Assembly: GCA_012295275.1 (NCBI GenBank)
Contig: CM022678.1
Location: 17,670,001-17,734,000 of the forward strand
Reading direction: 5' to 3'
Length of the DNA stretch: 64,000 bases
DNA from: Chrysomallon squamiferum
Lineage: Eukaryota > Animalia > Mollusca
Part shown: piece by piece, positions 10,650 to 59,942 of the stretch
Layout: each line of letters begins with the position of its first letter
How positions within the stretch are numbered: position 1 is the stretch's first letter
The notes under the pieces: generated by a model
The model's input: only the letters and a program-made list of their open reading frames with translations
Databases searched by the model: none
Told to the model about the DNA's origin: nothing
Translations under genes and position numbers: made by a program

Positions 10650-11040
10650 GATTCTCTAACTTGTTGTTACAGCCTAGCTTTGTAAATATAATAATACTTA
10701 TAAAACTGATGATGATGATAATACAAAATATAATTATAATGATGATGATGATGATGATGATGATAATAAAAAATATATTATAATGATGATGATGATGATG
10801 ACTGACAATAATAATAATAATAATAATAACAAAAGTAGTAGCAGCATACAGAAATAACACAGTTGTATGCTGTAGTAGTTGTAGTGACAGCTTTTTCGGT
10901 AGTTGTAGTAGCAGAAGCAATAGTAGTAGTCATACTGATACTAATATATATATTTTTTTATTATTATAGTATAAAAGTATTATGTAGTAGCAGTAAAAAT
11001 AATTTAGATAATAAATGCTGGAAACATATCACTGCATTAC

Positions 11041-11849: not shown

Positions 11850-12175
11850 TTTCCTACCTACTTATAACAACCAGAATTACGATAAGAGATTAAAAACATT
11901 TGATAATATCTATCTCTTCTTGTCTCATGGGACAGACCGATGTTAATATTGACTTCCTAGTGTTACGGACTGAATGTTATTATTATTATTATTTTTAATT
12001 TGGATTTGCTTTTGAATAAACTTAGAAATCATACTGTTTGTTTCATTTAGTGCATTTTTAAAGACATGCATAACTACCTTTTCAATTATACCACAGTTCA
12101 AATAATATCGATTTTTCCTTTGGATGATTTACTGCGTTCCAGTTTCAGACAACAGACACATTCCAAGATGGCAGC
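11850..12175. promoter_or_regulatory. Probable bidirectional promoter shared by MTMR9 (-) and ZC2HC1A (+)
   Basis: Head-to-head genes. ETS-like ACTTCC near 11952; YY1-like CAAGATGGC overlapping the ZC2HC1A ATG (12164-12172); candidate MTMR9 first-exon donor GTAGGT near 11855-11861. Confidence 0.55.
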
Positions 12176-16118: not shown

Positions 16119-18450
16119 GAAACAGAAACACACTCATATTTCCATACATACATACACAATCACACACATATACACTTAACTATGAGCTCTCAAAATAAAA
16201 ATCAGGCAAATACAGGCACATTCATGTTTATTTATTTTTTTGTATAATGATATAACCAATAAAATGATAATATAAAATATATATACATACAGACACCCAC
16301 ACACTCCACACACAAAATCTCACCTTCATGGACACACACACACAAAATCTCTAATTGGCTTTATCTAAACCATTCCAATAATGAATTGCAAAAAAAAAAA
16401 AGAAAAAAAAATAGACTACAAATGTAGCCGCAGGCTGAAACATCTTTTAATAATTAAACACATTCAATTTTATCCATTCATGTTAGGCCACACCAAATTA
16501 CAATCACATTGTGCGGACTGGTTACAAGTACACTCGTACTTCTTCCTGCAGTGGTCATGGTTGGTTGGATGGCTGCAAGTGTAACACTTAATGGTTTCCT
16601 TGGAAAATGAATATACCACACTGGCTGAATTATTGATCAAATGTTTTCCAGCACACGATGGCTTCCAATAAATTGTTTCATTCAGTTTAATTACTTTTTT
16701 TCTTACCTGATGGCTTAATGAGTTTCTCCTTGGACACATTAAATGTTGATCAGAATAAATTAACTGGAAAGTGAAAGGTATTAATATTCCAGGCTTGAAG
16801 AAATTAATTTGTGTCGTAACTCAAGAGCAAAGGTTAAAATGAAAAATGGTCATTTTGGAAGTATGTAAGATGTAAGATATGTTTATATGGAGTTTTTATT
16901 ATTTTTTTATTTTTTTGTTTATTTTTATTATTTTTGTTAATTTTTTTTTATTTTTTGGCTCCATCTAGTCTTGTTGCTTGTAAACTGAACTTCAGAAGTT
17001 CTGGGATTCATAATATATGTTATATGTCATCTGTCTAGTTGTCATTTTATACTTACATTCATGCATCACTCACAGACATTGCATATGCAAATATATATAA
17101 ATTTGCTTTCCTCAGGCACATATACATATACAGATAAATACATGCATAAAATATACAGAAACACACACACACACTAATACATATATTCGTGCATATATAC
17201 ACACATACATACAAACAAACTCAGTTGTCAAATATATATAATAATACATGCATCTATAAATATTTGTATAAACTTGCTTACATCAGCAAAGGATGAGACA
17301 GGACATTGTAAATGAAAGCAGTGAAAGTTGATGGAGTTTGAAGAGTCATTCAGTTCAGAGAGATGTTTATGTTTTATTCATAGCAGCAAGCTTGAAGACT
17401 ACAGTCAGATACATCCCAGCTAGCACTCACAGTGCCAGATCAATTTTTACCTCCACCAGTCAATTGTTTATTCATACATTCTCTTTGTTCTCAGAAAAAA
17501 AAATGTTGTTTACCTATATTTTCTTTAATGTCAACCATCGATCAACATTTTTCCCTTTTAATTTAATATTTCACACACACACACATAGATGTATACAGTT
17601 TCGTGGCATGTTTTTTAAAACTTTTTTCTTTTCTTTCAGTTGTATGAATTTTAAAAACAAAATATGACATGATTTTTTCACATAGAGATGCATTACATGT
17701 TAAAGTTACACTAAATGACACTAAATAAGTCCAGTCATGTTACAGTTCACTTTGTCAGCCACATTGTACTGATTTATAACAGGAATAATTTCTGTCCTGT
17801 CATGTTTTCATCTGTCTAGACCCATGCACATATTTTATCTGGTTTTTTTTGTCATAATATAACATTGTCAATTGTTAATTTTTTTTTTTTCTGTTACATT
17901 AACCCAGTTCACATTATATACATCATTTTAAAAAAGTGTTTCAGTTTGTTATTTTTAATTTTTTTTTATTAATTTTATTTTATTATCTTTTTTTTTTTTT
18001 TTTTTTAATTTTTTTTTTTTTTTTTTTTTTTTATTTTTTTTTTTTTTTTTTTTTTATTTATTTATTTATTTATTTTTTTTTTTTAAATTTCTTTATTTAT
18101 TTCTTCATTATTTCAGCTCTTCAATTGTACCCTTGCAAAATCTGTGGACGAAAATTTGTCCAGGAATCTTTGGTAAGTACAAGTAATATCTTTACCCACA
18201 ACTGATTTATCAAACGCTGTTGTATGTTTTCAAGTCACTGGGTAGTATTTAATATTTCTAAAACATGTTGCTTTAAATAACTTGCCTCATTTTCGAAGCA
18301 TTAAATTTCAGTGATTATTAATCAAAATGTTTAAAGCAAAATTTATTATTATTATATTGTTAGTACAACAACTAAAACTATGTTACTACCACTGCTGCAA
18401 CTACTACTACCACTGCTACCATTGCCATTACTACTTCTATCACTACAACA

Positions 18451-18489
<39 letters not shown>

Positions 18490-21400
18490 TTTGTCATTAT
18501 TATTATTATTATTATTATTGCATTATTATTATTATTGTTATTGTTATTGTTATATTATTATTATTATTATTGTTATTATTATTGTATTATTATCATTATT
18601 GTTGTTATATTATTATTATTGTTATTATTGTATTGTTATTGTATTAATATCATTATTATATTATTGTTATTACAATTGTTATTATTGTTGTTATTATTGT
18701 TTTTATTATTATTGTTGTTATTATTATTGTTATTGTTATTGTTATTATTATTATTGTTATTGTTATTATTATTGTTATTATTGTTATGATTATTTAGGAC
18801 AAGCATGTGAAGGCCTGTGCGAAGGTCAGTAAACCGAGGAAAGTGTTTGACTCAGCAAAACAGCGAGTGACTGAAGACCTTCCACTGAGACAAATCAAAC
18901 AGGCACAGAAAAAGGTGTGTATGAGTTAGTCTGAGTTTCAGTGAGTTAGTTTGAGTTTCAGTGAGTTGAGATTGAGTATACATGAGTTTTAATGACTGAG
19001 TGTGTGTGTGTTTGTGTGTATATGAATTATAATGAATTTTAATGAGTTAACATTGAGTGCATATGAGTTTCAGTGAGTAAAGATTGAGTATATGGGAGCT
19101 TTAATGACTGAGAGTGTGTGTGTAAAATAATATGAGTTATAATGAATTAAGATTGAGTACATATGAGTTTTAGTGAGTTAAGATTGAGCATACGATGTTA
19201 ATATTGCATGAGTAAGATTAAGTATTTATGAGTTTCAGTGAGTTAAGATCTAGTATACAAAAAAATATTCAGAGATTTTAAATTAATGAATTAAGGCATT
19301 TGGGTATTTTAATAAAAGGATATGAGTTTAAATGAATGAATGTAAGTTTTATATATTTTTTCATGAGTGAATAAATTTATATCAGTTTTGTCTGAGTTCT
19401 AATGAATTATAACTTAATAAATATTCATGAGTTTGTGTGAGTTGGTGTATGTAAATGAGGTTGTTTATATAAATGGATAAATGGAGATAAATAAGGTTAT
19501 TAATGTAAATATGTTTATATGAGTTTATGAGTGTAAATGTGTTTGTTTATGTTTGTGTAGAGTGTAGACAGTTTTATGAGTTTAGAAGTAGACAGGTGTA
19601 TACAAGTTAATGGAGTAGATGAGTGTCTGAATTTATTTCAGTTTGTATGAACTGAAATGAGTTAATGTGATGTTCTGTTCAGTATTTGATTAAATTTACA
19701 GTTTGTGTGAGTTTTTAATGAGCTGTTTATATGCAGATTTGAGTCAATTATTATTAAAGATTGCAGACAATTGTACGAGTTTTGAGTAAATTAATATGAG
19801 TTATGTGAACCAGATTAAAATGGTTTTGTATGTTGACACTGCTTGTACAGAAAAAATAAATACAGTATGTAAAAGTAAATATTACAGATAATATTTAAAT
19901 TTTAATAAATTTATACTTGCAGGAATTCAGTATACAAATATCAGTAAAAGCAATAAAATATTTGATTTTGGTATAAATTAATCAAATTTATGTTACAGGC
20001 AAAAATTATACACATTTATTACATGTATTACAATTAAAAATTATTAGAATTTATTACAGGTACAAATTATTAGAATATATGTTACAGGTAAAAATGTATA
20101 GAATTTATATTACAGGTTAAAATGTTAGAATTTATGTTACAGGTTAAATTCATTCATGTTTATAATGTAGATATTAATTATTATATATATATAGATAGAT
20201 AGTTCTTACAAAACTAATATAAAAAAATGAATGAATTAATGTTTAATGACATCCCATCAAAAAAATATATATATCAGCTATTGGATGTTAGCATAAATAA
20301 AATTTATTGTAAAGGTAAAATTAGTTAGTATTAATGACATAGGTTAAAAAAAAAAATCTAAATGATTTGCAACAGGTAAAACAAATATTTAATGTTTAAT
20401 GTTTATAACTGATGTAAATTGTTAATGTTTGCATACAGTTGTTATACTTCATAACACAGACAAAATTTATTAATGCTTATCTTACAGGTAAAATTAGGTT
20501 AGTATTAATAGTTCAGGTAAAATTATTTCCATTTGTAATACAGGTGAAAATGATTGACGTTAGTAATATGGATAAAATGTATTAGTATTAACAGATAAAA
20601 ACTAATGAAAATTACAACGTAAATCATTAGTATTAACAGGTTAAAAATTGTTTGTATTAATAGATTAAACTGTTAGTATGTAGTCTGTAGAACAATAAAA
20701 TTATTATTCTATACTGACAGGTAAGAATTACTTTAGTAATTGAATAAAATTTACAAAACTTTCTCATGTTTATATTACAGGTAAAATTACATTAGTGTTA
20801 ATAGTAAGGTATAAATTATCAGTATTAATAATTAAAAGTTATAAGTATTATGAGAAAAAAAATCTGTTAAAGATTCAGGTATAAATTTTTAGTATTTACA
20901 TAACATAATAATTATTATTCCATATCAGACAGGTAAAAATTAGTGTCCAACATGAATTAATATTTAAACAGGAGTTTTCCGAATCTTGGCCGCATTTCAA
21001 GCACAGACACAAAAGAACATGTTTTTTTTCAAAACTGTGTGCTTTGTTTTAATGGCATTTTGATTTCAAATGTGTGTTTTTGAATTAATATTTAGAGTCC
21101 TTTTATTTAAAAAAATACTTAAAAACATTTCATTTCAGAATGATAAAAAAGATGTGAGTATAAAATTATTTGGCCCTGATGCACAAGACAATCTTTATCA
21201 GTTCTAGACTGCAAGGATTTTTTTCTATTTTAATGTTTCAAAAATGCATGTAATAGAAAGAAAAAAAGGCTGTTTGTATGTATGTATGAATATGTAAAGC
21301 ATGATCTTTAAAGACTGCATCCCTGAAAATGTTGTCTCACAGTTTTTTAATAGTTGTTAGGTGTCTCTGTTATTCACATAATTGTTATAATTATTATTAT

Positions 21401-24400
21401 TACTATTTTAAAGCACAGATATTGTTTGTTGTTAACAGGGAATGTATTCATTCATCTGTCACTCTGTTAATCCATTTGTTTTTCTGTCACTCACAATTCA
21501 TCACAACCAATCACAATTTGCATGAATCTTTTTTTCTCAAACTCAACAAAGGAGGTGGAAATTTTTGTGTTTTGCTTTTCAGCCAGAATAAAACACTGAA
21601 GTCTTCAGTGATGATTATTACAAATAACAAAGATGATAATTTAGTAATTAAATAGCTGTATTATGAATATAATCTTAGATCGATTTTAATAAACCTACCT
21701 GTATTTGTATCACAGTGTTAAAACAGATGAAAGTGGAAATATTAGTAAATGGATAATACAGAATTTAATATTTAATAATTATAATTATGACCTTTATAAA
21801 CATTTTTTATAAATAGGCAGGTCCTTCCCAGTGGTTTTAAGCAAATGTAAGTGGTGATAAGTGAATAGGTATATAACTTAATGTTTAATTAGTATAATTA
21901 AGATCTTTCTAAACATTCTTTTAGCAAAGGATTAAATAAATTTATATTTAAATTTTAATAAGTTTGCAGGAATTCAGTAAACAAATATCTGTAAAGTCAA
22001 TAAAATATTTGTAGTGATTTCTAGAAATAACTACTTGATTTTGGTGAATGGTTTAGTTATAAATATATTCTGTGTAGTACTTTTTATTAATACTTGAGAT
22101 ATTTTATTAAATTAATAAATTTATAATTAATTTAATGTGGCTGTTTATTCTGCATTTTTTTAAATTAATCTATAATTATATTAATTAGAATCAGACTGGG
22201 TTTTTGGGTGGGGGTGTTTTTTTTTTTGAGGTGGGTTTAACTAGGTGACCAGAAAAACCCCATTAAAATAATAATTATTATTATTATAAGAACTCTTCAG
22301 TTCCTTACTTGGTTGTCTCCTCTTGTCATTAACATAATGATTTAATTAATCGTTATATACATGCATGACTGAATACTAGTTTTCTTCGCTGCTTTGTGTA
22401 TCTTCTCTTTACCAATGGCTTTGGAAGAGTTTTACCTATTTTTTTTTTTTTTTTTTAACCTTAAAAATAACAAAATAATGCATGCATTCTGCTGTGTACC
22501 TTTTGGCATTTGGTTGTAGTGGACAGTGCTTTTGCTTAATTCTACTCCTACCAGAGGAGCTATAGACTAAACTCTTAATGAAAGGATTTTATAAATAGTT
22601 CTTAGGAGCGACTGTAGATAGATCTCTATAGAAGGCGATTTTGTAAATAGTTCTACTTAGCAGGAGGGGTGTAGGTGCCTCCTTAGAAGATGATACAGAA
22701 GACACTCCTTAGATAATGTAGATAGTTCTCTTAGGAGATGCAGTACATGGATATCTTTAGGGCATATTGTAGATAATTTTCTTTGGGAGATATAGATAGT
22801 TTACTTTGGGATGAGAGAGATTGTATATAAGTACCCTTTAACAAGAGAGGTTGTTAATTGTTTTTCTAAGGAGAAGAGAGAGTAGATAGTTCTGCTGAGG
22901 AGGAGATGTTGTAGATGGTTCTTCTTAAATGTAGATAGATCTCTTTAGGAGGAGAAATTGTAGATAGTTCTTAGAAGGAGCATTTTTAGTTTAAAACTTC
23001 TTAGGAGGAGAAATTACAGATAGTATTCCATAGGAAACAGATGTTAAAGATAGATTATTCCTTTGAAGCGATTTAAATTTAAAACTTCTTAGGAGGAGAA
23101 ATTACAGATAGTATTCCATAGAAAACAGATGTTAAAGATAGATTATTCCTTTGAAGAGATTTAAATTGTTAATGAGTCATCTTTAGCAGAAAAAAAATTA
23201 GAGATAAATTACAAAAGTATATGGGTAATATATTATTATATATGAAATTACATAGATGTATTGGAGAGAATGTTATTTATGAACTGCATGAAATTTTATT
23301 CATAAAATTATAAGGTGAAAACACAGGTAGATTCATATAGGTGAAAGGACATAAGTAAAAGGTGTATATAGGTGAAATTATTCTTGTGAAGTTGTTTGTA
23401 AGTAATGGCATATGTGGCTCATGTGTCACAGGTAAAATCTGTGTGCAGTGAAGTGGAACAGGTGAGATAAAATCAGACAGGTGAAACCTGGTTTAATTCT
23501 ATGTATGAGAAATGACACAGGTAAAACTGTAAATAGGTATAATGCTGATATAATGAAATAAAGTCAACTGTTTAAATGAAACAAAACAGGTAAAAATTGT
23601 GTATTGAAATGAAATAGGTGTAATTCTATATAGTGAAATGAAACAAGTAGAACTGTTTAAATGAACTAAAAAACAGGTAAAAATTAAGTATTGAAATGAA
23701 ACAGGTAAAGTTGTAGATAAATGAAATGATACAGGTACAATTACATCTTATAAAGAATAAGGTAAAAGATAAAAAAAAAAAAAGTTAAAAAAAAACACAA
23801 AAAAACCTGATCTTACAGGTGACCCAATAACACTAAATAAAAACAAAAAAAACAAGATGAAAACGTGAAAAAAACAAAAAAAAACATAACAAAATAAAAA
23901 ATTTAAATAATCAACACTGGATCATGGACCAGAAATCTTCAGATGATGAAAAAAAAGCAAAAAACAGCCTCAGTGAGAACATTTTTGTGTAAAACAAAGT
24001 TTTGTGTTTGACGTGAGTGATGTTCTCTCTCTTGTTCTCTGCAGGTTGTGTCAGCCCCGAAGAGCAACTGGCGCGCCAAGCATGAGGACTTCATAAACAG
24101 CATTCGCGCCGCCCGCGACATCACCAAGGCCCAGAGTGAGGGCCGCCCACTGCCCCCTCCCCCACCCCCCTCAATTAATCCAGGTAAGCTGAGACAGTTT
24201 TGATTTCGTTTGCGATACATAAACTGAACCGGGTAGAACTGGTTTCATTTTAGTGTTATATTTATATATTTTGTTAATGATGTATTTGTTGGTTTGTTTA
24301 TTTTTATTTTATTTATTTATTTATTAATTTATTTATTTACTATAATGGTAATATTAGCTAGCTCTTGTTTATTATTGTTACTTTATTATTAGTGGTAGTA

Positions 24401-24765: not shown

Positions 24766-26459
24766 ATTATTATTATCATATTATCATAATTATTATCATT
24801 ATTGTTGTTATTATTACTATTATTACTGATGTTATTACTGATGTTATTACTGATGTTGTTACTGGTGTTGTTACTGATGTTACTGATGTTGTTACTGTTA
24901 TTACTGATGTTACTGATGTTATTACTGTTATTACTGATGTTACTGATGTTGTTACTGATGTTGTTACTGATGTTGTTACTCTTACTGACAGACTATGTGC
25001 AGTGCCCGTACTGTTCTCGCCGGTTCAATGAGAAGGCGGCAGAGCGACACATCCCGTTCTGCAAGGAGCAGAGTCTGAAGAAAGGCACCATACCACGCCC
25101 CAACCCTGCCGCTGTTGCCAAGCAACAAATCAGGACGCAGGTTTGTTCCGTTTTCAGTTTGTAACATGACTAGTTGAAGACAAAGTCATTGAAACTTTAC
25201 AAGTTTATCACTGGTGATTAAAACAGAAGAAATCTAAATATATTGTACATATCTTGAAATTTAAGTTTTGTTGTTGTTGTTTTTTTGGGGGCATAGGGCT
25301 AATTTGTTCATTATTTTTAATATAAAAATGTATTGTTTGTCCAATCTTTATTAATGATAAAGTATAAAAAGAAAAGAGAACAGTTTAAAAAAAAGTTTGA
25401 TTATGTCGGGGTTTTTTTCTTCTATAGTTATTATATGATTGCAAAGAATGCAAACCAGTTTGATGTAACATTTTTTTTCTAGTGGCAGAAAACAAACACA
25501 GTTTTAATAACAAATAAACATTTCATTTCATTTCAAAAGAAAAATTAATTCTGTATGCTTATATTAACCTAAAATACTTTTAGTTGAGAAATTCTATCAA
25601 TTTTGACAATTTTAAATGCCAAATGTTCTTTAAACCTTTTCTTTTTTTTTTTCTACCCACACCAGTAATTAATTTAATATGAAAAATAGCAAGTGAATTA
25701 TGTGTAACAATTGTGGATTGGTTGTTAAATTTAATTTTGTGTTGATAATGTTTAGTCTGACTCTAAGGATGGAGTAAGTATTTTTAGATAGTTTTTGTTG
25801 TCAGAGAGCATAATACACTGAAAAAATCATCTTTCTTCTATTTATTTGTTTATTTATTTATTTATTTATTTCGGCTGTTATCACAACATTGTGGTGAAAT
25901 GCTTCTATGGGGTTTTATTTAGCAAAATGGCATTGGTTTTTTTAAGTTGCCATGACAACATTGTGTATGATCTGTTTAAATTTTACTTATTAATTACATA
26001 CATAATAATTTACAATCAGTTATAGGTAATGCTTAGTGTATTATATTTAGTTACCATAGCAATATCTGTAAAAGTTTTTTTGTTTCGTACATGTACTGTT
26101 ATTTTTATTTTATTTTATTTTATTATTTTTTTATTATTATTATTGTTATGCAGTGACACTGATTAAATAAGAATACTTAGGAATTTTGTTAAAATGCATG
26201 GATTAATTTTAGATACTGTGTATGTTGTTGATTCTAGGTGTTTTGTACACACTTTCACTTGTCACAACAGCTGATAGGTGTTTGTATATTTTTTCTTCTC
26301 AGCTAGTTTTAGTTTAGTTTTAAGGTTTGGTGAATCGTAGATATTTACATCATATTTTATGCATGTTGTCTACGCAATCAATGTTTATTAATTATCAGAT
26401 GCAGAAAGAATGTGTTGTGTGTGTGTGTGTTTATGTGTCTGTATGTTTGTATCTGTGTA

Positions 26460-26822: not shown

Positions 26823-29398
26823 ATTTTTTTTTTTCTGCAGTACCAGGCACCGAGGCCTAGGGTGGCCAGTAACACCAGTGGAGGGACTCCCATGGCCTCA
26901 TCCTCAGGGAATCGGAGCGGGGTCAGCCGCACCCCGGCTGCTGGCATGGTAACGACTTTGTTTAGTTTTACTTAAAAACTGTGCATTATTAAGCAGTCCT
27001 GTCAGTGGGAGGGTGCATATATACAAAAACTCTTTGCTGAGTTTTATTAATGTTTACGACACTGAAAATTGTTTTGAGTGACACATTAAATAAAACTTAA
27101 AATTTTTTATTTATTTTAAATCTGACAGCAGCAGGCTGTAGTTATACTGCAGATCTGAGTCCCTGAATCCAACTAACTTCTCAGTCTTATTCTCTGATTT
27201 CTTTCAGTTTACTCACAGTTTCATTTGTCATTTGTACCCAGTATCTCTTGCTCACCTGTTTTTTTCATTACTCACTGCCTATTTCTTTCCTTTATTTATT
27301 TTGTTGACTCTCCAAGTCTCTGAGTGCTCTGCTTTTTAACTCTCCAGTTTCTGCTCCTCATCTGTTTTGTTTCTAATAATGATTTTGCTCTCTTCATTCT
27401 GTTCTCATTTTATTCATTGTCCCATTTCATTTGCTCTCCAAATTCTGTTCCCATCTTGTTTGCTCTCCACATTCTGTTCCCATCTTGTTTGCTCTCCACA
27501 TTCTGTTTCCTTTTTGTTATTCATTTTGCTATTTGTTATTTTGCTCTTCACTTTGTCTGCTTTCCCCATTTTTTTTTTTTCTGTTTTTGTTCTCTCCTAA
27601 TTGTTATTATTTCAGTTTACCCTGTTTATCATTCTATTTATCATTTTGCTCTCTGTTTTTCATATTTATATTTGCTGGCAGATATATTTTACTCTCAACA
27701 TTTCCTTCCCATTTCACTCGTACTCACCTATTCATAAATTTTGATTTTCCACATTTCAGAATCTCATTTTTACACATTTTCTATTTCCCATTTAATTCAC
27801 TCTCCTAATAACAACGATGCCGTCCACATTTCTTTTTTTATTTCATTTTACTCTCCTACTTACGTTGCTCTCCACATTTCTGTTTCTATTTCATTTTACT
27901 CTCCTGCTTACGTTGCTCTCCACAATTCTGTTTCTATTTCATTTTACTCTCCTACTTACGTTGCTCTCCACATTTCGGTTTCCCGTGATTTACTCACTCT
28001 CCTGTTTCTGGTTGTGCTCCAGGAGTCTCGTTACAGTGATTTTGAGTCTGGTGCGAGTTACGTGTCGCCAGTACCGCCAGCCGATGGTCAGCAGTTGAGT
28101 TCTGGCAAGGACTCAGCGTCCAGTCGAATACCTAAAAAAGAAAAGGGACAAAACAAATTAAAAAAAATGTCGTCTTTCCACATGAGGTTTGAGCCTTTCA
28201 GAGAACCCAGAGTTTTGAAAAAATTCATTTTGAATTGACTCTGAATTCATTTTGAATTACTTTGAATTACGTTTTGAATGACTCTGAATTCATTTTGAAT
28301 GTCTTTGAATTACATTTTGAATGACTTTGAAATCATTTTGAATTATGTTGAATTCCGTTTTGCTGATTTTTGAGTTATTGTTGAATGATTCTAAATTGCG
28401 TTTGGATCATTTTAAATTAATTTGTGACGGTTTTAAATTATGTTTTTGAAAATTTTTGTAAGTTATCTTAAAAAGTTATTATTATTATTATTATTATTAG
28501 ATTATTATTACATATTTGTTATTGTTGTTGTTTTTCCTAATTTCATGTTTTCAACTGAGTTGATTCTGATGGTGTTATTTTCTGGGTTTATTTGTTATGT
28601 TTTTTTTACAATTTTTCCTGTTTCTGTAAAGATAATTACTAAAAGATATTCACATAATTAAATGTCACAAAGTTTCATAAAGTGAAAAGTCACATTATAT
28701 TTTTAACACAGTCAGACAGTTAATTATTATTATTAACTGGTTATGATCAATTGCTTAAAACTGTCCTCAGCAACAAGAGGTTCCAAGATCAGTTCTCCTC
28801 TGTAGACTGCTTGTCTGTCTGTCTGTCTGTTATAAATGTCTGTTCTAAATGATAAAGAGCAGTGTTTGCTTCTCTCTATAAGAGAAAGTTTTGATAAAAG
28901 ATTCCCTGTTGCTGTGTTTTAAGAAAGTTAATCTTCCAGTCCTGTGATAAGTTTAAATAATTAAGCAGAGAGAACAAATCTAGTTTATTTAACTGTTTTG
29001 TTTGTTAGCTGATAGGGTTTTTTAATTTTGGGGGGATTTTTCTCCAGTGATTATTTACTCTTGTTATTTTATTTAAATATCTTTATTAATATTTTTGTAT
29101 ATTTCAACAGACTATTATCAAAACACATTTGATTTAATTATTCAGCTTGATATAAACAGTTTCTCTCTCTCTCCTTATATTTCTTTCTCTATTTCAGTAT
29201 GTTTCAAAGAATTCATTCAGTACATTCATTTATTCCTCCAATTAGGATTTATTTTAATCAGTAGCTCTATGTACTAGAATTATTATTAGTAAATAATTTT
29301 ACTGTTATGGTGGAAACTCTTCAAAGTGACAGAAATTCATTCTTTTTTCCCATTCCAGACTCTTCAAATAAACCATTTTACATTTCTTTCATTCTTTC

Positions 29399-29494
<96 letters not shown>

Positions 29495-31154
29495 TATAAT
29501 TTTTATAAATAATTTATTTTTTTATTTATTCATTTTTTTAATAGGGTGCACCATTTTTCATCAAAAAAAATTCTTTAGCAGTGAGAATGTCATTTAATAA
29601 ATAAATAAATTATAAGATAAAATAAAATTAAAGTTCATTACTTCATGAGAACAAATTGCATTTCAGAAATCAACAAAACCAACTGCTGCTGTAAGTACTG
29701 GGCTGCAGAGTTATCTCCCCTTTACCTTGTATATTACCTCCCCTTTGTACCGTCTTGGTGTATGTGTATTGTTTTTCCTGTTTTTCCTGTTGTTGTCTGT
29801 CAATATACATAAACCTTATATTGCTGCTTTAATGTCAGAACTGTTTCCCCTGTTTACCCTCGTTTTTGTGTATATTTTCTTTTGTTGTAAGCTTAAGTAT
29901 ATTTAATTTATATTGGATAATAAACCTTACCACATGGACACGGTTCTATAATTATCTTCCTTTATTGTATGAATTATATTCCCTGTATACCTTCATCAGT
30001 ATATTTAAAATATTATTTTTAATGTGACCTAAACCTTGTTAATGTTATTCTGCATTTATATATAGTCCTATTAAATCTTTTTTAATTCCTTTATTTAAAA
30101 TATTTTTACCTTTATATATAGTTATTATCTTTATTTTACATAATTTATGTTGTATGATAAACCTTGTATTGCTGCTTTGTGTACGGTGTTGTGTATTTAT
30201 CTCCCCTTTACTGTATAGATTACCTCCCCTGTGTACCCTCTTCAGTGTACCTTTACTGTTTTCCATTTTCTTGTTACTTATTTTTGAATTCATTGAACTA
30301 AGTGTTGATTTTGAGAATGTTGATAATATTGCTGTTGATGCTGATTATCAACAGTTGATTCTTACTAGTCGACATATTGATGTTTTGATCTGTAGTAAAC
30401 TGTTATAAAGCAATAGGAACTTTTTTATGGATTTAAACTATTTTGATTGATGCAATTAATTCATTTATTGATGTGATCATTATAAATATTGATAAGAATG
30501 TTGATATTATTAAAACTGTTCCAAGTTGATGATAAATGTAAAGGTTGATAATGGGGTTGTTGATGGAAAGAAAGTTGATGTTTTTAATTCTATTATTCAT
30601 GTAAAACAAGCAGAAATGATGATAAATGTAAAGGAAACTGAAGTTATTTAAATATAGCAGTTGATAATAATGTTGAGAAATGTGAAGATTATTAACAAAT
30701 ATTATGGATGTTAATGTTATTAAATATAGCAGTTGACAAAACTAGTAAATTTAAATTTAAAGATTAATAAGAAGAATTGATGACATAGATTTTAAGAAAA
30801 TTGATATTTTTAAGTATAGCAGTTGTTGGTAAGTGGAAATTTTGATAATGAGAATTCTGGGAGTTGATGTTATTGAGTACAAAAGTTGATGATGTTGATA
30901 ATTGTTACATTTCAGACATCATCAAAGAAACCAGTAAGTATGGAGGCTGTTGCCTAGCAACCTAATATTTATATATATTACCTGCTTTTGTACCTGTATA
31001 CAGAGAGAGCTTTAGTAATATCTTATCTCAATGCTTCAATTGTCATTTTAACATTGCTGCATATACTTTCCTTGTAATCTGAGTGAGTGTGTGTTGTTTT
31101 ACATACTCCTTTGCTTCAGTCACTTTTTGTTATTATGGAATTTTGTTTATATGA

Positions 31155-31203
<49 letters not shown>

Positions 31204-31835
31204 CTTTGTCTGTTTTCTAATGTAGTGGACATTTGTTTTGTTTATGTTTATATATATATTTATGTACATATGTATTTCTGTTCCAAAGTGTGTTCATGTA
31301 GTGTACATATTTTCTAAATGTATAGGTGTATTTATGTCTGTTTGTCTGGCTGTGTGTTTTTATTTCCTTTTATTGTATTTATTTACTTCATTTATCCTGT
31401 TAAAATGTTTGTATTTTGTTTAGTATCTGTTTGCATGTGCTGTCTTTGTATGTATGTATGTGTGTGTGTGTGTGTGTGTGTTTTGGGTAGATGTGTAGGT
31501 GTGTGTTGCATGTTTTGGATAGGTGTGTGTGTGTGTGTATGTGTGTGTTTTAAGAGAGTATCAGTTTGTTGGTGTGTTTGTTCTGTTTGTTTTTTTATGT
31601 ATTTATTTATATGCTTCAGCTGCCATTTTAACATCAAACTGTGCCTTCTGTAGCAGTGTCTGTTCAGCTGTATGTATTAACAAATATAATCAGTTCTTCT
31701 AAACCTCAGATTCGTACATGCTGCTCTGGGTGAAGTATCTGACATCTGTTTTATATAATGTATTTGTTTATGACATTCATTTTGTATTTTATAATTAATT
31801 GTTTATTTACTGCTTACTATTATCATTATTTCTGC

Positions 31836-31872
<37 letters not shown>

Positions 31873-33742
31873 TATTGTCCAATATTTTCTAAAAATACTT
31901 GTTACAAAATAAAAAATACACACACACATAGAATAAAAGACAGCACAAACACATACACACATTTAAAACATATACAATACAACACAAACACACTTTAAGC
32001 ATATACAACAAACAACAGATGTGAGTTGTCTAATATCTTAGCTCTTGTCATTATTCAAAAGGTATTTAACCCACTGTAAAGATCTAACTTTGATAAACTA
32101 CCTTGTTGAAACAGAGTAACAGAGCCCAGTAATGTATATCACTTTGTGTGAATTTGAGTACATGTGTTTGTCTTTTATCTGCCTCTAATCAAGATTCAGG
32201 TCCATTAAACACACACACAGATTAATCACAGATATGTCAGACTGTTACAGGTGTTCATGTCTGGATTGTTACACTTGCTAAAGTGACCACCTGTGTTTAG
32301 GGACCTCTTTTTGGTCATGCTGATCTATTCTAAACAACCATCTGTCAATAAAGACCACATTCGTAATGCTCCAGATATTCTAATAAACTTGCCCATATTA
32401 AACCATTACCTGTTCTGAGAGGACACTTTTTTTTTAAATGAAAAGATGTCTGTCTAAAAGAGACCTTGCTGCTAGGTGAAATCTGTAATGATGGAGGTAT
32501 TTATTTATTTATTTATTTATTTATTTACTTATTTATTTGTTTGTTTGTTTGTTTGTTTATTTATTTATTGAGGCAATATATTTAAAAAGTTATTCTACTG
32601 ACCTACTGCATTATTTCACATACCTTCCTTTATATTTTATTTATAGTTAATTATTTTGTTGGTGTTGTTGTTGTTATTATTATTGTTATTTTTAATGTTC
32701 AGAAATGGCTATATTTTATATTACTGCTTTTCAGACATCATCTAAAAAGCCAGTAAGTATGGGAGGACACATGACATCCCTGTCATTTTTACCTTTTGTT
32801 GTTGTCAGAACATTTCCTTTTGGTGTCTCAGTTTTAACCTTGCTTGAGTTTCATACATTTCATACATTGTCTGAATGTTACCCTGATTATATGAACTGTA
32901 CCCTAATAGGATAAAAAAAATAGCATTTTTCTTTCAATTTACCCTGATAGTATGTATTTCTCATTTCTGTTTGAATTGTTGACCTTGGCTGTTATATTCC
33001 GAAGCATGAATTTTCCTGTGCTTTGAATTTTGAGTCTGTCTGCATATGTTGTTTGAATTTGTCTGTATTGTCTGATCCAGTTAATGTCAGATCCTGCATG
33101 GTGACCTTTACCAATTTAATGTCAGATCCTGTACTGTGAGCTAAACCTAGTTAATGTCAGATCTTGCATGTAACCTCTACAATATTAATGTCAGATCCTA
33201 TAATGTGACCTAAACCTTGTTAATGTTATTCTGCATGTGACCTCTAGAATATTAATGTTAGATCCAGTCCTATGACCTAAATCCTTTTAATGTCAGATCC
33301 TGCATGCAAGCTCTACAATGTTAATATGGTATCCTGTACTGTGACCTTGACCCTGTTATCCTTTATGGTGACCCCTGCCAATTTAATGTTCAGTCCTGTA
33401 ATTTTACTTCTCTGTGTTATTGTCAGATCCTACTAAATTTATATCAGATTTGTACAAGTTAGCATTAAGTCCTTGACATTGACCTCCGTATTAGTGTCAG
33501 ATCAGTGTCATGACCTATGCATGTAATAGCTTTCTGAAACTTTGACCTAGAGCAGAAATAATGTCATGTTAATGTCAGTGCAGTATAATTATGTGAACTC
33601 TGTGAAAATAGATCAGATCTGCTTAAATTAAAAACATTGTAGCCAACATGTAAAATCTTTTATTTTATTTCTATTTTTATTCTTCTTTTTATTTACTTTT
33701 CTTATTAATTTGTCTTATTCTTCTTCTTTTTTTAATCATTTC

Positions 33743-33775
<33 letters not shown>

Positions 33776-34319
33776 GTGTTATTTTTGTTTATTATATTTA
33801 TTTGTTTGTTTATTATAGTACTTTATTTATTTATTTATTTATTTATTTGTTTGTTTTTTTTATTTTTATTTTTATTTTTGGCGTACTGAAATCTCCTGCC
33901 TACTGAATCTTTCAGAGAAACTACTTTTAGTTTGTCCTCTAGGGTTTCAGGTAAGACACAGTTTTAAAACACAAACATTCTGTTGTCAAGGTAACACCAG
34001 TTTCTTACAGATCAACATTGAGACATTTTTAAATTAGCTGCTAATTAAATCTGACTGGATTGTTAATTTTCAGACATCATCAAAAACTGCTGTAAGTACA
34101 CCTGTATGTGTGTCTGTCAGCACACATTTTGTTTTCACTGGTCTCGTAGTTGTCAGTGTTTTTTGTTTCTTTGTTAGATTATGTCTCATGATCTGTATGC
34201 ATGTTAAACATCGCTTGTTGGTCTGTAGGGAATAGAGAGCAGGTTTAGTCAACATTTTTTTTACTTTGTTGTTTTTATAATGTTTGAAAATTTTGATAAA
34301 AACTTAATCAGTGTAGTGT

Positions 34320-35871: not shown

Positions 35872-36199
35872 AAGTAGTAGAGAAGTAGTAGTAAGAGTAG
35901 ATGTAGAAGTAGTAGCAGTAGTAGTAGTAGTAGTAGTATTTATAACAAATAGTCGACGCCTGTTTATGTTTTTGAATTTCTCTCTCTCTAGGGAAGGCGC
36001 TAGGAACACTCTGTCGCCCATAGATGGACAGTCCCCTTCAAGAAGCAAGCGAACAAAATCAGACAGCATGATCAAAACTCCCACCGCACAGAACATCACA
36101 TCACTAGCGAAATTCTGTCACAACTGTGGCACCAGATACTATGTTGCCACAGCCAAGTTTTGTTGTGAATGTGGGATTGGTCGAATAGGGATTTCCTGA
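12168..36199 (+). CDS. ZC2HC1A: Zinc finger C2HC domain-containing protein 1A-like (about 318 aa via exon 28023-28186)
   Basis: Exons: 12168-12183, 18117-18172, 18798-18914, 24045-24183, 24992-25140, 26841-26948, 28023-28186, 35992-36199 (957 nt, in frame). Translation MAANVALQLYPCKICGRKF..KHVKAC..RKVFDSAKQR, SNWRAKHEDFI..IRAAR, PPPPPPSINPDYVQCPYCSRRFNEKAAERHIPFC and C-terminal FCHNCGTRY..AKFCCECGI matches the ZC2HC1A family architecture. Confidence 0.9.
16470..16763 (-). CDS. Candidate nested antisense Cys-rich exons (16763-16707 and 16598-16470) in ZC2HC1A intron 1
   Basis: ctttcactttccag|57-nt open exon|gtaaga, a 108-nt intron, then ttttccaag|ETIKCYTCSHPTNHDHCRKKYECTCNQSAQCDC...*. High-complexity island; no upstream exon identified. 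Confidence 0.3.
   Translation of the reverse strand, partial: LIYSDQHLMCPRRNSLSHQVRKKVIKLNETIYWKPSCAGKHLINNSASVVYSFSKETIKCYTCSHPTNHDHCRKKYECTCNQSAQCDCNLVWPNMNG
18385..18795. repeat. Compound (CTA)n/(TAT)n/(TGT)n microsatellite abutting ZC2HC1A exon-3 acceptor
   Basis: Direct inspection. Confidence 0.95.
18915..19810 (+). repeat. Degenerate TGAGT/GTGAGTT array immediately after ZC2HC1A exon 3 donor
   Basis: Dozens of ATGAGTT, GTGAGTT and TTGAGT words. Confidence 0.75.
19990..20940 (+). repeat. Degenerate ~28-nt array with ACAGGTAAAA core
   Basis: More than a dozen (T)ACAGGT words followed by A-rich sequence. Confidence 0.75.
21139..21153 (+). CDS. Candidate 15-nt in-frame microexon of ZC2HC1A (NDKKD)
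   Basis: catttcag|AATGATAAAAAAGAT|gtgagt. Symmetric phase 0, matching flanking exons 3 and 4; no stop. Confidence 0.6.
22550..23200 (+). repeat. Degenerate AGGAG/GTAGATAG array including an ~89-nt exact-like duplication (about 22990 and 23079)
   Basis: Repeated TTAGGAGGAGA...GTAGATAGTTCT words. Confidence 0.7.
23310..23825 (+). repeat. Second degenerate ACAGGT(A/G)AAA array
   Basis: Repeated TGAAATGAAACAGGTAAAA-like units. Confidence 0.7.
24822..24990 (+). repeat. (TTACTGATG[TTG])n array abutting ZC2HC1A exon-5 acceptor
   Basis: About 12 TACTGA words ending in CTTACTGACAG|. Confidence 0.85.
27820..27985 (+). repeat. 48-nt tandem repeat x3 upstream of exon 28023
   Basis: TTTCATTTTACTCTCCTACTTACGTTGCTCTCCACATTTCTGTTTCTA units. 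Confidence 0.85.
29359..29375 (+). pseudogene. Decayed microexon paralogue (no donor site)
   Basis: ttccag|ACTCTTCAAATAAACCA aligns 15/18 with the TSSKKP microexon, but has a 1-nt deletion and is followed by TT rather than GT. Confidence 0.45.
29667..29690 (+). CDS. Candidate 24-nt microexon of ZC2HC1A (KSTKPTAA)
   Basis: ttgcatttcag|AAATCAACAAAACCAACTGCTGCT|gtaagt. Consensus splice sites; TGC just upstream of the 3' splice site. Confidence 0.65.
30916..30933 (+). CDS. Candidate 18-nt microexon of ZC2HC1A (TSSKKP, copy 1)
   Basis: catttcag|ACATCATCAAAGAAACCA|gtaagt. Confidence 0.72.
32735..32752 (+). CDS. Candidate 18-nt microexon of ZC2HC1A (TSSKKP, copy 2)
   Basis: tgcttttcag|ACATCATCTAAAAAGCCA|gtaagt. 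Differs from copy 1 only at three synonymous third positions. Confidence 0.72.
33080..33570 (+). repeat. Degenerate TTAATGTCAGATCC...TGACCT array between microexons
   Basis: Period of about 35 nt, more than 10 copies. Confidence 0.75.
33943..33950 (+). CDS. Candidate 8-nt phase 0-to-2 microexon (GF+R) or recursive splice site
   Basis: tgtcctctag|GGTTTCAG|gtaaga. Restores the phase required by the terminal exon. Confidence 0.45.
34074..34091 (+). CDS. Candidate 18-nt microexon of ZC2HC1A (TSSKTA)
   Basis: aattttcag|ACATCATCAAAAACTGCT|gtaagt. Confidence 0.7.
34229..34242 (+). CDS. Candidate 14-nt phase 0-to-2 microexon (GIES+R)
   Basis: ggtctgtag|GGAATAGAGAGCAG|gtttag. Joins the phase-0 microexons in frame to the phase-2 terminal exon; the donor resembles other AG|gttt donors in this gene. 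Confidence 0.35.
35630..35938. repeat. Long (AGT)n microsatellite before ZC2HC1A terminal exon
   Basis: Direct inspection. Confidence 0.95.
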
Positions 36200-47574: not shown

Positions 47575-50331
47575 TTTATTATTATTATTATTATTGCTGT
47601 TGTTGTTGTTGTTGTTAATGTTATCAGTATTCAGAAGTGTACTTTACCTAGCGTCCATCCTGTGGTCAAACTGGCCTCGGTGGACCAGGTTGTGTCGAAG
47701 GTCATTGGGATTGTTTTGTATTCGTTCCATTTTAATTTGAGTTTTGTAACTCTGTCGATTGTGTCCGAAGTTTGGTTCGTACTTGAAATCTGGCTCAGTA
47801 TCTAGTCTGAAAATGAAGAGATAATTAAAATAAAAAATAATAAAACCTAACAAAACCCACAGCCCATATAAAATATTATAAATAAATATCAAACTCAGTG
47901 TAAAACTAATATTTTATGAAAGTGAAAATCAAACATAACAATTACTTTTAGGTTTTGATATTAATTTTATTATAGACCTCATGTTATTTAGCAAATATTA
48001 AAAAGTCAGTAAACAATGCAAGAATACAAATAAACAAACATCTACTTCTTTCATTGCAGTTATTTCTTTTTTAAACATCTGTTTCTTTCATTATATTATT
48101 ATTAATTTTTAATTTTTGATTTAATTCCCATTCCATATCAACTAACTGTAAACTATTTCAGAATTTATATTTACCTGATGTGCACCGTCTGCCCAACATG
48201 TCTGCCATGTGGAGAAGGACTCCTCTGTCTTGTGACCTCAAGATATTTCTCTCTCCATGGCGACCGACTGACCTCTTTTCTAATAAATGAAATTTTTTCA
48301 TTTTAAAATCAAAGCCAGTGGATCATTTTTTAAAACTATTTTATTAAAAATCAAATAGAAACTGATGTTAAAAGTTCGATACTGTGCCTATATGAAACAT
48401 ACGAAATAAACTTTTAAAATATTAATTTAAGGAATATTTTTAATGTATAAAGGATTTATCGTCTAATAAAATACAAAAATAAATTTTAAAAAAGTAATTA
48501 ATAATTTCAATCACAGATAAGACTAGTAACTGTTTGAGTATATTCAGATGGCAGTTAAATCAACAACTTAGCAATATTTTATATAACAAAATCAAAATTA
48601 AAAAACAAAACAACATAATAGCAATTGGTGCATTTGTAAGAACACTGGATCCATAACTGAAAGTTTGCAGGTTCAATACCCTGGACCTGTGACACTGTTG
48701 TGTGGTGACTGCATTTCACTACAACATAATTAACAACTTGACAAGATGTGATGTTCTGTTTATGATTAGTGCATTGTGACATATGGCAGCATGGAGTGTA
48801 TGCTTTCCCAGATGTGTGTGTTAGACAGAAAAATGAGTTAGGGAAATAATAAAATATGGTGTTTTGAGTCTGCATTACCACTGGAATTATGTACTACCTA
48901 GGTGTCCAATGATGATGATGTTGAAGATAATAATAATAATAATAATAATAATAGTAACAATAATAAAAATAATAATAATAATAATATTAATAATAGCAAC
49001 AGTAACAAAAAAAACTAAAAATAGTAATAATACTAAATAATAATCTTAAATAAAACAGAATTAAAAAAATATTCTGTAAAAAAATAAATGTTTTTTCGTT
49101 AAATAAAGACCAAAATGAAATTCAAAAGATACCTTATTACACGAGGTGACCTCTGAGTCAGCTCATTATCATAATCTGATCTCTCGCGACTGCTTCCTCG
49201 CGAATGATTAGAGACATTTCTACTCCGGATCGGCTGAATACTGATGATTCTTCTTTCAAACACATCATCATCATCATCATCCAGCCTATCATCATGGTGG
49301 AAAGCTTTAATCTCTTCACGATCGAATATCGGTTTCTTTCCTTCGCCAGTTCTGTGCACCATGACAAAAAAACTCGGATCGAAAACATTAGAGACGTTTA
49401 CAGTACTCGACGGGATACAGTTGCGAGACCGCTGGATTCCAATGGTTATGTTTTCCTCGAGAATCAAAGGCTTCTGGTCAACATTCTTAAATCTCTGGTT
49501 GAGAGTCTGTCGCAGAAAACCCGGCGAAAACTCTACGTTTGAGTCCAAACTCAAATTTTTGTCGTAATATTTTGAATCTGCGGAGTGGGACTGGTTCAGG
49601 TGCATGCTGGGAGGTACATTCCGCACATCTTCTTGTTTCTGATGTTCGTAAACAACACTGCGAGAACTGAAAGTTTCGGTTTTTGTTGGCGATATATCTT
49701 TTTGGCTTTGCCATCTAACAATTTAAAAAAAATAAATGAATAATGTCCAACAATATTACTATGAAAAGAAAAATATTTATTTAATTGCATCTGCTACACA
49801 AATTTTTTAACTAATTAAATCCAAAGTAATTGCTGTTCCTTTAAAAATCCTTTTTAAGTGCAATACAGTTTCTTTTAATAAGAATAAATACTAACCACTT
49901 ATCATTAACAGAATCAAAAAAATAATAAAATAAAAATAACTAAACAATAAGTAAATAAAATTAATAATTACAAAAACAATTTTAAAAATAAAAAATAATT
50001 TAAAAAATAATTATAATAATAATAATAATAACAAATAACTAATTATTTTAGAGTAAATAATTTAGGCTATAATTATATACAACCAAAAATGTTTTTAATA
50101 AATACCTAAATATATATATAAATAAATAAATAAATGTGTTTCTGTGTTTACCGTTGTTTTTCTGGACTCAGATTCTGTTGCTGTAAGGAAGAATTATTTC
50201 TGTCATAAGTCTGAAAAGCTTCTTGTCTAGAAAAGTGAATTGGGGACCTAAAATTAAACACAACAAAGAGAGACAGATGAAATCTGATCTACTCACTCAT
50301 CTTAAATCCGAGAACAAGGAGACAAAGAATC

Positions 50332-50427
<96 letters not shown>

Positions 50428-51923
50428 AGAAAGACAGATACAGAAAAACAGTAACAGATGTAAAACCATCACTAGACAGATGACTAACAGAAAGATAATT
50501 AGACAAAATGGTAAATGAAAAAAAAAAAGCTACAGCTACACAGACATGTGAATGCACGCAAGTGACAAATAAATACACATATATACGTAAAGACATGAAT
50601 ACGCACGTACATATTCTCAGTGAGATTTCTCACCTGGGCTGTTTCTGCGGAGAAACGTACAACTGGTGACTCTGATTCGGAGAATGGCTTCTTTTCCTTT
50701 TTGGTGACACGTTCCTTTCGACACTTTCACTTCCTGGCTTTCTCCGATTTGATGACGGGGAAATTCTCCCCTCTCTGTTTTGCACTGACGAAGACCGTTG
50801 CTGTGGCGATGGAGACTTCTGTGCCAGTGATTTATTCTGTGTTCCCGGCGTCTGCGGTTTCCTCTCGGGTGATCGGTAACGTCTTTGAGGTGACTGTGAC
50901 TTTCGACTAGCTGATCTAGACTTCCGTCTTGGTGATCGCGACTTTGTGCCTGGTGATCTCGATTTCTTTCGGGGCGACCTAGAATACCTTCTGGGTGATC
51001 GAGATTTCTTCCTGGGTGATCTAGAATACCTTCTGGGTGATCTAGATTGCCATTTTGGTGACTTTATTCCTGGTGATCTAGATCTCTTCCTGGGTGATCT
51101 AGACTTTCGTTTCGGTGATCGGTATCGTGTTACTGGTGATCTTGACCTTCTGGTGCCTGATCGAGATGGTCTCCATGGTGATCGAGATCTTCTCCTTTGA
51201 TTGTCTGACTTTCCATAACCACTTGTCAATCGATGCCTTGGTGACTTTGACCTTGACCTTGACCTAGACCTTCGCTGGTTTCTTCGATAGTATGGTGATC
51301 TGGATCTGCTTCTACAAAACACAGATTGTTATTTTTAAATTACAAATTTATTTAAAATAAAATAACAAAGTATTAATACTGGCCATTCAAACATAAAACA
51401 AAATAACTGTTAAATTGTATCCTCGATGATGCCATCAACTATAATATAAGTTGTCTTTGCTTTCTTTTACTATTATTATCATTAATTGTAGTAGCAGTAG
51501 TAATAAGCAGGTAACATTTAATAAAATTAAGGTAAACTGATGCATATGCCTGTATATTTGTCTGGGTGGCTATATTTGTATGTCTGAGTACAAATACAGG
51601 TTTTGTTTTATTTTTCTATTATATTAATGATCAACAGTTGTTTTTAACATTAACCAATATTGATAATAATTATTATTAACTAATTTTTTTTTCTAAATTC
51701 AATTTCCTATGCATCGTCATAAGATATATCAACTGATTCATATATCTGCAACAGTATTCAACTGCCTTTTTAGAATTTCAACATTTGCATCGGGCTAGAA
51801 TGACAAAAATAACAAAAACAATGAAGTAATAAAACTTGTTTTAGAATCTAAGATCCCGTTTACATTTTATTTGCAAATTCAAAACAATCATTTACATAAA
51901 ATGCCAATAACTAAAAACCTCAT
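43222..51923 (-). CDS. RS-domain nuclear protein, BCLAF1/THRAP3-like, with C-terminal Btz-type motif (about 746 aa, 12 coding exons)
   Basis: Exons (minus): 51923-51919, 51311-50634, 50247-50152, 49714-49133, 48279-48175, 47806-47648, 47385-47279, 46739-46680, 46042-45975, 45252-45089, 44146-44031, 43322-43222 (2241 nt, in frame). Begins MRSRSRSP with a long SRSP-repeat domain. Motifs TLNQRF, RRIISI, PNDLRH, WRENPEIIPKGESYFEHDDR, an RGG-rich tract and WKHDMF resemble the conserved BCLAF1/THRAP3 blocks (TLxERF, RRIDIS, DLRHDI, PKSKKYFLHDDR, WxHDK[FY]). Confidence 0.8.
43843..44043 (-). repeat. 33-nt tandem repeat containing the exon-11 donor of the BCLAF1/THRAP3-like gene
   Basis: Unit GGTGTAGATAATG|GTATGTATAAATTGTATAAT (minus), about 6 copies, stop-free (GVDNGMYKLYN). 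Confidence 0.9.
48635..48710 (+). mobile_element. Decayed tRNA-derived SINE head
   Basis: B-box-like GCAGGTTCAATACC preceded by a degenerate A-box region; no complete cloverleaf. Confidence 0.3.
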
Positions 51924-57003: not shown

Positions 57004-57452
57004 ACAAAAGTCTTTACAGGCTATTAACACTTTTATTTTTTTTTTTCAATGAAATGTTGAAAAACAGTAAAATTAAAAAAGAGAAGAAAATTTATAAATC
57101 AATTTACTGAAACCTATAAATAAAATTTAGAAACAATTTTTGGGGGTTTTTAATCTCCAATTAAAAATGAAATATTAATTAAAAAAAGAACATCGATTTA
57201 ATTCTTTGAATTTTAACAATTTAAGAACAATAAAAAAATAAAATAATAAAAAATGACAAAAAGAAGAAATTAAAGACAAAAATTCAGCAGAGACACTACT
57301 TACTCTTTTGATAATCTTTTCCTTGAGAAATACTTTCAGGACACTGAAGATGGAATCAAAGAAACCAGGTTCATTTACATAATGGATTCCTTTAAATCGA
57401 GCAGGAAAAGAATCCTATAAAAAAAATAATTAATACATATGACTGCTTATTA

Positions 57453-57529
<77 letters not shown>

Positions 57530-58003
57530 TCTATTTGTATGTGTCATTTCTGTCATTCTGTATGGGTGTCATATTTTTGACATTTTGCATGTGTGTCGTA
57601 TTTCTGTTATTCAGTATGTGTGTGCGTCATTTCTGTTATTCAATATATGCATGCGTCATTTCTGTTATTCAATATATGCATGCATCATTTCTGTTATTTA
57701 ATATATGCATGCGTCATATCTGTTATTCAATATGTATGTATATCACATTTCTGTCATTGACCATCTGTGTATCATATTTCTGTCATTCTGCATGTGTGCA
57801 TATCTGTCTGTCATTCTGTGTATGTGTCTGTCTTTGTCTGTGTGTAAATGCTTAAAGAAAAATTCCTGTTTAATATCTACCTGAAACAAACCAGTCATTG
57901 TTTTGGCGTATGAGGGTGTCAGCTGCTTCCCATGATTCCAGGTAAAGCCATCCATGTCAATGATAAACATTAACCCATTTACTTGTGTTTCTTCTTCCTG
58001 TTC

Positions 58004-58065
<62 letters not shown>

Positions 58066-58138
58066 TAATAATAATAGCAAAAAAAATAAATAATAAACAT
58101 CAACCCATTTATTTGTGTTTCTTCTTCGAGTTGATCAC

Positions 58139-58188
<50 letters not shown>

Positions 58189-58373
58189 TGACAAAAATAA
58201 TAATAATAATAATAAAAAAATAATAGCAAAAAAAAATATAAACATTAACCCATTCATTTGTCTTTTCTTTCTGTTTATAATACTAATACTAATAATAGTA
58301 ATAAATGCAACAACAACAACAACAATAACAATAATAATAATAGTAGTAGTAGTAGTAATAGTAATATATAATA

Positions 58374-58411
<38 letters not shown>

Positions 58412-59902: not shown

Positions 59903-59942
<40 letters not shown>

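Follow-up and report, generated by a model that had tools for sequence, protein, structure and literature searches.

A ZC2HC1 gene of Chrysomallon squamiferum with probable tail microexons and a last exon that is likely read in two frames

The window analysed here is a stretch of 64,000 nucleotides (nt) of Chrysomallon squamiferum (contig CM022678.1, positions 17,670,001 to 17,734,000, forward strand). On its + strand, at positions 12168–36199, lies a gene of the ZC2HC1 family in which four microexons, m1 to m4, precede the last exon (Table 1), and our subject is how these exons may set the ends of the proteins that the gene encodes. The C2HC finger in exon 5 scores 33.2 bits against PF13913 (cut-off 27), and the best relatives of this exon are mollusc ZC2HC1 proteins. 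Among the proteins fetched, Gigantopelta aegis is closest for both the N-terminus and the last exon; the last exon in its phase-2 frame is identical to G. aegis at 41 of 71 positions and corresponds to the C-terminal zinc ribbon of 1A-type proteins, with Pfam ribbon matches that fall below the cut-off. A preliminary description of the window, made from the sequence alone, had named the gene ZC2HC1A. The family was correct; a one-to-one relationship with vertebrate ZC2HC1A is not supported: in a tree of 36 N-terminal regions, in which G. aegis stands in as a proxy for the window gene, nine molluscs fall outside both the vertebrate ZC2HC1A and the vertebrate ZC2HC1B group (support 85/83). On this placement, the gene is best called a ZC2HC1A/1B co-orthologue.

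Table 1. Exons and candidate exons of the ZC2HC1 gene, in window coordinates
Feature	Position	Strand	Basis
Exon 1, coding part with start codon	12168..12183	+	Sequence; N-terminus matches G. aegis protein
Exon 2, start of C2HC finger 1	18117..18172	+	Sequence, G. aegis match
Exon 3	18798..18914	+	Sequence, G. aegis match
Candidate 15-nt microexon, NDKKD, at position of G. aegis SGKD cassette	21139..21153	+	Splice-site scan, position only
Exon 4, helix and polyproline	24045..24183	+	Sequence, G. aegis match
Exon 5, C2HC finger 2	24992..25140	+	PF13913 above cut-off; homologues
Candidate 18-nt microexon, SDSKDG, similar to G. aegis ANPKDG cassette	25756..25773	+	Splice-site scan, G. aegis models
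Exon 6, ends in phase 0	26841..26948	+	Phase analysis, alignment
Exon X, 164 nt, phase 0 to 2, opens zinc-ribbon frame	28023..28186	+	Phases; 13/47 identical to G. aegis long form
Microexon relic that retains its acceptor, without donor and 1 nt short	29359..29375	+	Edit-distance search
Microexon m1, KSTKPTAA, 24 nt	29667..29690	+	Last 12 nt spliced to m2 in RNA; similar to G. aegis KPTSKSTTV
Microexon m2, TSSKKP, 18 nt	30916..30933	+	Spliced to last exon in RNA; similar to G. aegis APATKKP
Microexon m3, TSSKKP, 18 nt, paralogue of m2	32735..32752	+	Three synonymous differences from m2; skipped in RNA contigs
Candidate frame-shifting exon Y, one donor, three possible acceptors	33916..33950	+	Splice sites; skipped in RNA contigs; may be chance
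Microexon m4, TSSKTA, 18 nt	34074..34091	+	Paralogue of m2/m3; similar to G. aegis TTTKTT; skipped in RNA contigs
Two-frame last exon: GRR-stop (phase 0) or 68 amino acids ending in zinc ribbon (phase 2)	35992..36199	+	Phases; acceptor set by RNA; G. aegis match

Which end the last exon encodes depends on the phase of entry: the zinc ribbon needs phase 2, while phase 0 yields GRR followed by a stop. Because exon 6 ends in phase 0 and all of the microexons are multiples of three, exon 6 followed by microexons cannot reach the ribbon. The ribbon frame needs an exon of 3n+2 nt such as exon X, which was absent from the preliminary description, and the peptide of exon X resembles part of the long form of G. 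aegis (E 7e-7, from a pairwise comparison, which we used since the multiple alignment misplaced this peptide). The phases in the window and the G. aegis gene models described below indicate that one last exon is likely read in two frames, giving two protein classes; the junction of X to the last exon is absent from the RNA contigs examined. With exon X, the product would be a ZC2HC1A-like protein of about 318 amino acids that ends in the zinc ribbon; without it, a ZC2HC1B-like protein of 198–224 amino acids that would end after GRR. If the donor of exon X is unused, the frame continues for 17 codons to a stop (28023–28238, +), a possible alternative end. Exon X also contains SRIP, a match to the SxIP motif that binds EB proteins. 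We rejected this candidate: G. aegis lacks it there, and the available part of a preprint on human ZC2HC1A (10.64898/2026.10.26.761828) predicts contact through the EB CH domain.

RNA decides the status of two of the microexons. The last exon was present in five runs, four of them recorded as RNA from a single study, and we compared three of the four RNA runs (one contig per run) and the fifth run to it. For 3/3 RNA runs, the contig match begins at 35992 and the loose end shows the final 12 nt of m1 followed by the complete 18-nt m2; the fifth run extends into the intron, as expected of DNA. Since m1, m2, and the last exon are joined in all three RNA contigs, m1 and m2 are true exons and are used together. 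The preliminary description had named junctions in RNA beforehand as the check on its segments, and the m1–m2–last exon junctions were found, with m3 and m4 not seen. In each of the three contigs m3, Y, and m4 are skipped, and none of them is included in any. Contigs lose rare variants and carry no tissue information; the absence of X, Y, m3, and m4 from them is not evidence of non-use. The length of the loose end, 255 nt, agrees with exon 6 as well as with exon X as the exon before m1 and does not discriminate between them. Two further searches were uninformative about the transcript: longer proteins searched with the last-exon translation gave seven candidates and no match, and 572 stretches matched in metagenome contigs, of which none was confirmed.

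The isoforms of G. aegis, taken from 15 automated RefSeq gene models (X1–X15, XP_041361257-272) and not from a published description, divide into the same two classes. In five of the models the X homologue occurs together with the ribbon, and tail cassettes are absent; the remaining ten have neither X homologue nor ribbon, end in GRR, and carry no cassette (two models), one (two), two (four), or three (two). The three tail cassettes, KPTSKSTTV, APATKKP, and TTTKTT, resemble m1, m2/m3, and m4 and stand in the same order; G. aegis has one KKP cassette, whereas the window gene has two copies and a decayed one. Five of the eight possible combinations occur, X6 being the counterpart of the m1+m2 form in C. 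squamiferum RNA, and net tail charge ranges from +2 to +7 across the models. The preliminary description had proposed a combinatorial set of cassettes in the linker before the C-terminal zinc ribbon. We retain the cassettes, as skippable phase-0 microexons of a ZC2HC1 gene with similar cassettes combined in the G. aegis models, and give up the placement: the microexon route ends in GRR-stop, and 0/15 G. aegis models have both tail microexons and the ribbon. In isoform X8 the ribbon is kept and the counterpart of exons 4 and 5, with the helix and finger 2, is missing; exons 4 and 5 sum to 288 nt in the window, so that a skip of this type would be in frame.

Within the array, the four segments of 18–24 nt lie, with the sequences given, where the preliminary description had placed them, each between TTTCAG and GTAAGTA, and their starts are 1249, 1819, and 1339 nt apart from m1 to m4. 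As had also been reported, m2 and m3 differ at three positions, all synonymous in phase 0; in the next frame all three differences are non-synonymous, and in the third frame one makes a stop. The pattern TTTCAG, 9–30 stop-free nt in a multiple of three, and GTAAGT, which was picked after the copies had been seen, occurs four times in the array intron, nowhere else on the + strand of the window, and nowhere on its – strand; among 2000 shuffled controls, 1968 gave no occurrence, 32 gave one, and none gave two or more. Paralogy of all four copies had been claimed, and it holds for m2, m3, and m4, which align with one another (82–91% over 32–40 nt; E 2e-7 to 1e-3) over the exon and splice sites only, while m1 does not align to the others. 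Likewise, the claimed kinship of the downstream flanks is found for m2 and m3 and not for the other copies, and beyond +6 only 5–7 of 24 positions match. The relic at 29359–29375 is as described, with its acceptor present, its donor absent, and 1 nt missing; it is three edits from m2–m4, a distance that was reached in 0/300 shuffles and at no other site of the window. The exons of m2–m4 are conserved while their flanks have diverged, and these copies probably arose by tandem duplication. The array region also holds intronic repeats (29684–29775 with 30170–30262, and 30020–30053 with 33201–33234), including an exact 34-nt intronic match to one unit of a 35-nt tandem repeat at 33081–33358. Shared intron blocks were dropped as evidence of duplication, being out of register with the exons.

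Two known kinds of exon offer a comparison. Tandem duplicated exon substitution events, as described in the available part of PMC9741552 (which does not mention ZC2HC1), resemble this array in that tandem paralogous exons vary a short homologous region. Those exons are mutually exclusive, whereas the window copies are additive cassettes of 6–8 codons: m1 and m2 are adjacent in RNA, and the full set of three cassettes occurs in G. aegis X5 and X7. Neural microexons that depend on the SRRM3/4 (Srrm234) microexon enhancer, eMIC, are marked by a UGC close to the acceptor, extended zones free of AG, tracts of UCUC, and strong branch points, according to the part of PMC8797185 available to us. The window microexons share their size, frame preservation, and, in 2/4, a UGC near the acceptor, and lack both the long AG-free zones and the UCUC tracts. 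The AG-free runs of m1–m4 are 15, 28, 30, and 34 nt compared to 25–58 nt for six ordinary exons; no UCUC tract precedes any of the four, and CTAAT is found at –33 of m4 only. The TGC at –10 of m1 and m3 is present, as had been noted, but is common, occurring at 42 of 428 intronic YAG sites and 5 of 21 TTTCAG sites (m1 and m3 included), and exon X has one at –8. On these features eMIC control of the array is at most weakly supported, and tissue-dependent inclusion, which the preliminary description had considered possible, is so far unsupported.

We asked whether the two-frame arrangement extends to other genera by determining whether a short-form tail and its stop can be encoded by long-form codons shifted to phase 2, in seven pairs from five genera. 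Mytilus, whose short form is a partial gene model, has one such site in each of two pairs (11/500 and 18/500 shuffles also fit), and Dreissena likewise has one in each of two pairs (86/500 and 80/500). In both genera the sites coincide with the point at which two long isoforms, unlike each other further upstream, become the same, as expected of an exon boundary. G. aegis, with its three-residue tail, fits at the expected place, but so do 323/500 shuffles. In vertebrates, the ribbon motif was found in 0/29 proteins named 1B and 30/38 named 1A, the matches being chosen by name and some of them partial; one shark protein named 1A groups with 1B in the tree. Vertebrate ZC2HC1B (FAM164B) is like the snail short form in having about 200–250 amino acids, two fingers, no ribbon, and in several cases an Arg-rich end, and unlike it in being a separate paralogue instead of a splice form. 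A short Gly/Arg motif (GRR, GRxGR, RRF, or RRN) stands at the end of many ribbon-less proteins of molluscs, a nemertean, and the vertebrate 1B group, and may represent a conserved terminal signal.

The surface of microtubules is acidic, and disordered tails with basic residues bind to it. Human ZC2HC1A follows microtubule plus ends, and its N-terminal domain together with EB proteins causes catastrophe; deletion of the disordered region or of the C-terminal domain markedly lowers microtubule binding while destabilising activity remains (from the available part of 10.64898/2026.10.26.761828). The gene has also been tied to cilia (PMC11317154, in the portion available). Given these domain roles, exon X would be a switch for the ribbon half and the microexons would tune the remaining tail. 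We consider it fairly probable that the microexons give the ribbon-less short isoform a variable Lys/Ser/Thr tail, which is predicted to modulate microtubule binding by this isoform, and that the two-frame last exon gives rise to the two protein classes. Inclusion of X would yield a form with both halves and its skipping a ribbon-less form, of which the microexons would set the remaining length and positive charge; placed just before GRR, they are predicted to raise net tail charge from +2 to at most +9. In C. squamiferum, exon 6 would join m1 directly, and m3, m4, and X would be used as well. An effect of the snail tail variants on microtubules is an extrapolation from the human protein. ZC2HC1A (Janusein, FAM164A), as the available text presents it, and the snail gene share two C2HC fingers, a helix, a disordered region, and a C-terminal ribbon, and of the three C-terminal contact residues that the preprint names, two (K313 and E317) are kept in the ribbon, judged by spacing, the position of R321 being Gly. 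Unlike human ZC2HC1A as described, the snail gene probably has ribbon-less products with variable tails in addition. The available part of the preprint does not mention isoforms, splicing, microexons, ZC2HC1B, or paralogs; its phylogeny figure may bear on paralogues.

Several points weigh against this interpretation. Ahead of the last exon the RNA covers only 30 nt, and the frame of m1 and m2 in C. squamiferum is therefore deduced and not read, and all of the RNA consists of contigs from one study, one per run, that do not contain m3, m4, X, or Y. The G. aegis isoforms are automated models whose read support is not visible. Dreissena alone is not significant in the two-frame test (80–86/500), the test is uninformative for three-residue tails (323/500 in G. 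aegis and 483/500 in Littorina), and it found no site in Tubulanus. Microexons m1–m4 are also open in phase 2, and exon Y, if used, would rescue part of the preliminary model. Finally, a disordered tail may vary even when its individual variants are not under selection, and the function of the mollusc forms is drawn from a human protein.

In a first rival reading, the exon structure is the same and there is no regulated dial: the duplicated copies would be kept as a generic basic disordered tail, and skipping would be splicing noise. That a single combination appears in RNA, that the eMIC signature is weak, that a decayed copy indicates turnover, and that cassette sequences differ between the two snails all agree with this account. 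We nevertheless find it rather unlikely, because m3 keeps the six residues of m2 through three synonymous changes while the flanks diverge and because three cassette types are apparently common to G. aegis, in the same order.

Exon Y would revive the preliminary proposal of a lengthened linker in the ribbon form, its 8-nt version (33943–33950) restoring the frame after m1–m3. Its donor, CAG-GTAAG, is strong and one of four such sites on the + strand of the window, and its three acceptors (33916, 33931, and 33943) give 35, 20, and 8 nt, all 3n+2; the 8-nt form has no stop, and the 35-nt form stops after four codons. This route is improbable in our judgement: Y is skipped in 3/3 RNA contigs and is not matched by anything in the G. 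aegis models, 0/15 of which combine tail cassettes with the ribbon, and m4, which lies downstream of Y, would be read in another frame. A still less probable route has the microexons follow exon X and encode, in phase 2, inserts rich in Gln, His, and Asn ahead of the ribbon. It fits the absence of stops from m1–m4 in that phase and an RNA record that does not show what precedes m1, but all three m2/m3 differences would then be non-synonymous, and the G. aegis cassettes match the phase-0 peptides only. Least credible, even though X skipping shortens the protein by about 100 amino acids, is that the short forms are unproductive transcripts that merely lower the output of full-length protein: the route was assembled in all three RNA runs, the m2/m3 changes are synonymous in the short-form frame, ribbon-less forms with similar Gly/Arg ends occur across molluscs and vertebrate 1B, and a stop located in the last exon, as in the short forms, should not trigger junction-based decay.

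A broader scenario can be entertained, which as a whole we put forward tentatively and with more doubt than confidence. An old splice switch, kept in molluscs, would let one ZC2HC1 gene produce a ribbon-bearing, microtubule-stabilising form and a ribbon-less, catastrophe-biased one through the use of one exon in two frames; vertebrates would have fixed both as 1A and 1B, and the snail lineage would have added a tissue-regulated microexon array that sets tail charge stepwise as a dial on microtubule catastrophe. The opposed halves of the human protein, catastrophe on one side and binding and stabilisation on the other, were shown only recently, and the locus resembles a natural version of the human deletion series, made by splicing and with graded tails. 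It offers constructs for asking whether tail charge can replace the zinc ribbon, as well as a testable idea about the role of the little-studied ZC2HC1B.

We found no description of a microexon array or of a two-frame switch in ZC2HC1 in the literature outside subscription papers, in agreement with the earlier statement that no such array in ZC2HC1A was known. Microexon arrays and frame-switch exons are already known kinds, and the isoforms are present, undescribed, in the automated annotation of G. aegis.

Two further candidate microexons lie upstream of the array; many other splice-site-like matches were set aside as lying in simple repeats or lacking support. The candidate at 25756–25773 falls between exons 5 and 6, where G. 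aegis has a look-alike pair (PNPKEA and ANPKDG) that would form a second small array. The position of the candidate at 21139–21153 corresponds to the loop joining finger 1 and the helix, a loop that the available part of the preprint (10.64898/2026.10.26.761828) implicates in catastrophe. Elsewhere in the window, exons of a myotubularin-related gene (MTMR6-9-like) at about 8150–10655 (–) lie head to head with the ZC2HC1 gene, and exons of a CRAL-TRIO domain gene occupy 57175–60929 (–). Two long open frames at 49099–51328 (–), without a Pfam match, include one that is Ser/Arg-rich with SRSP repeats.

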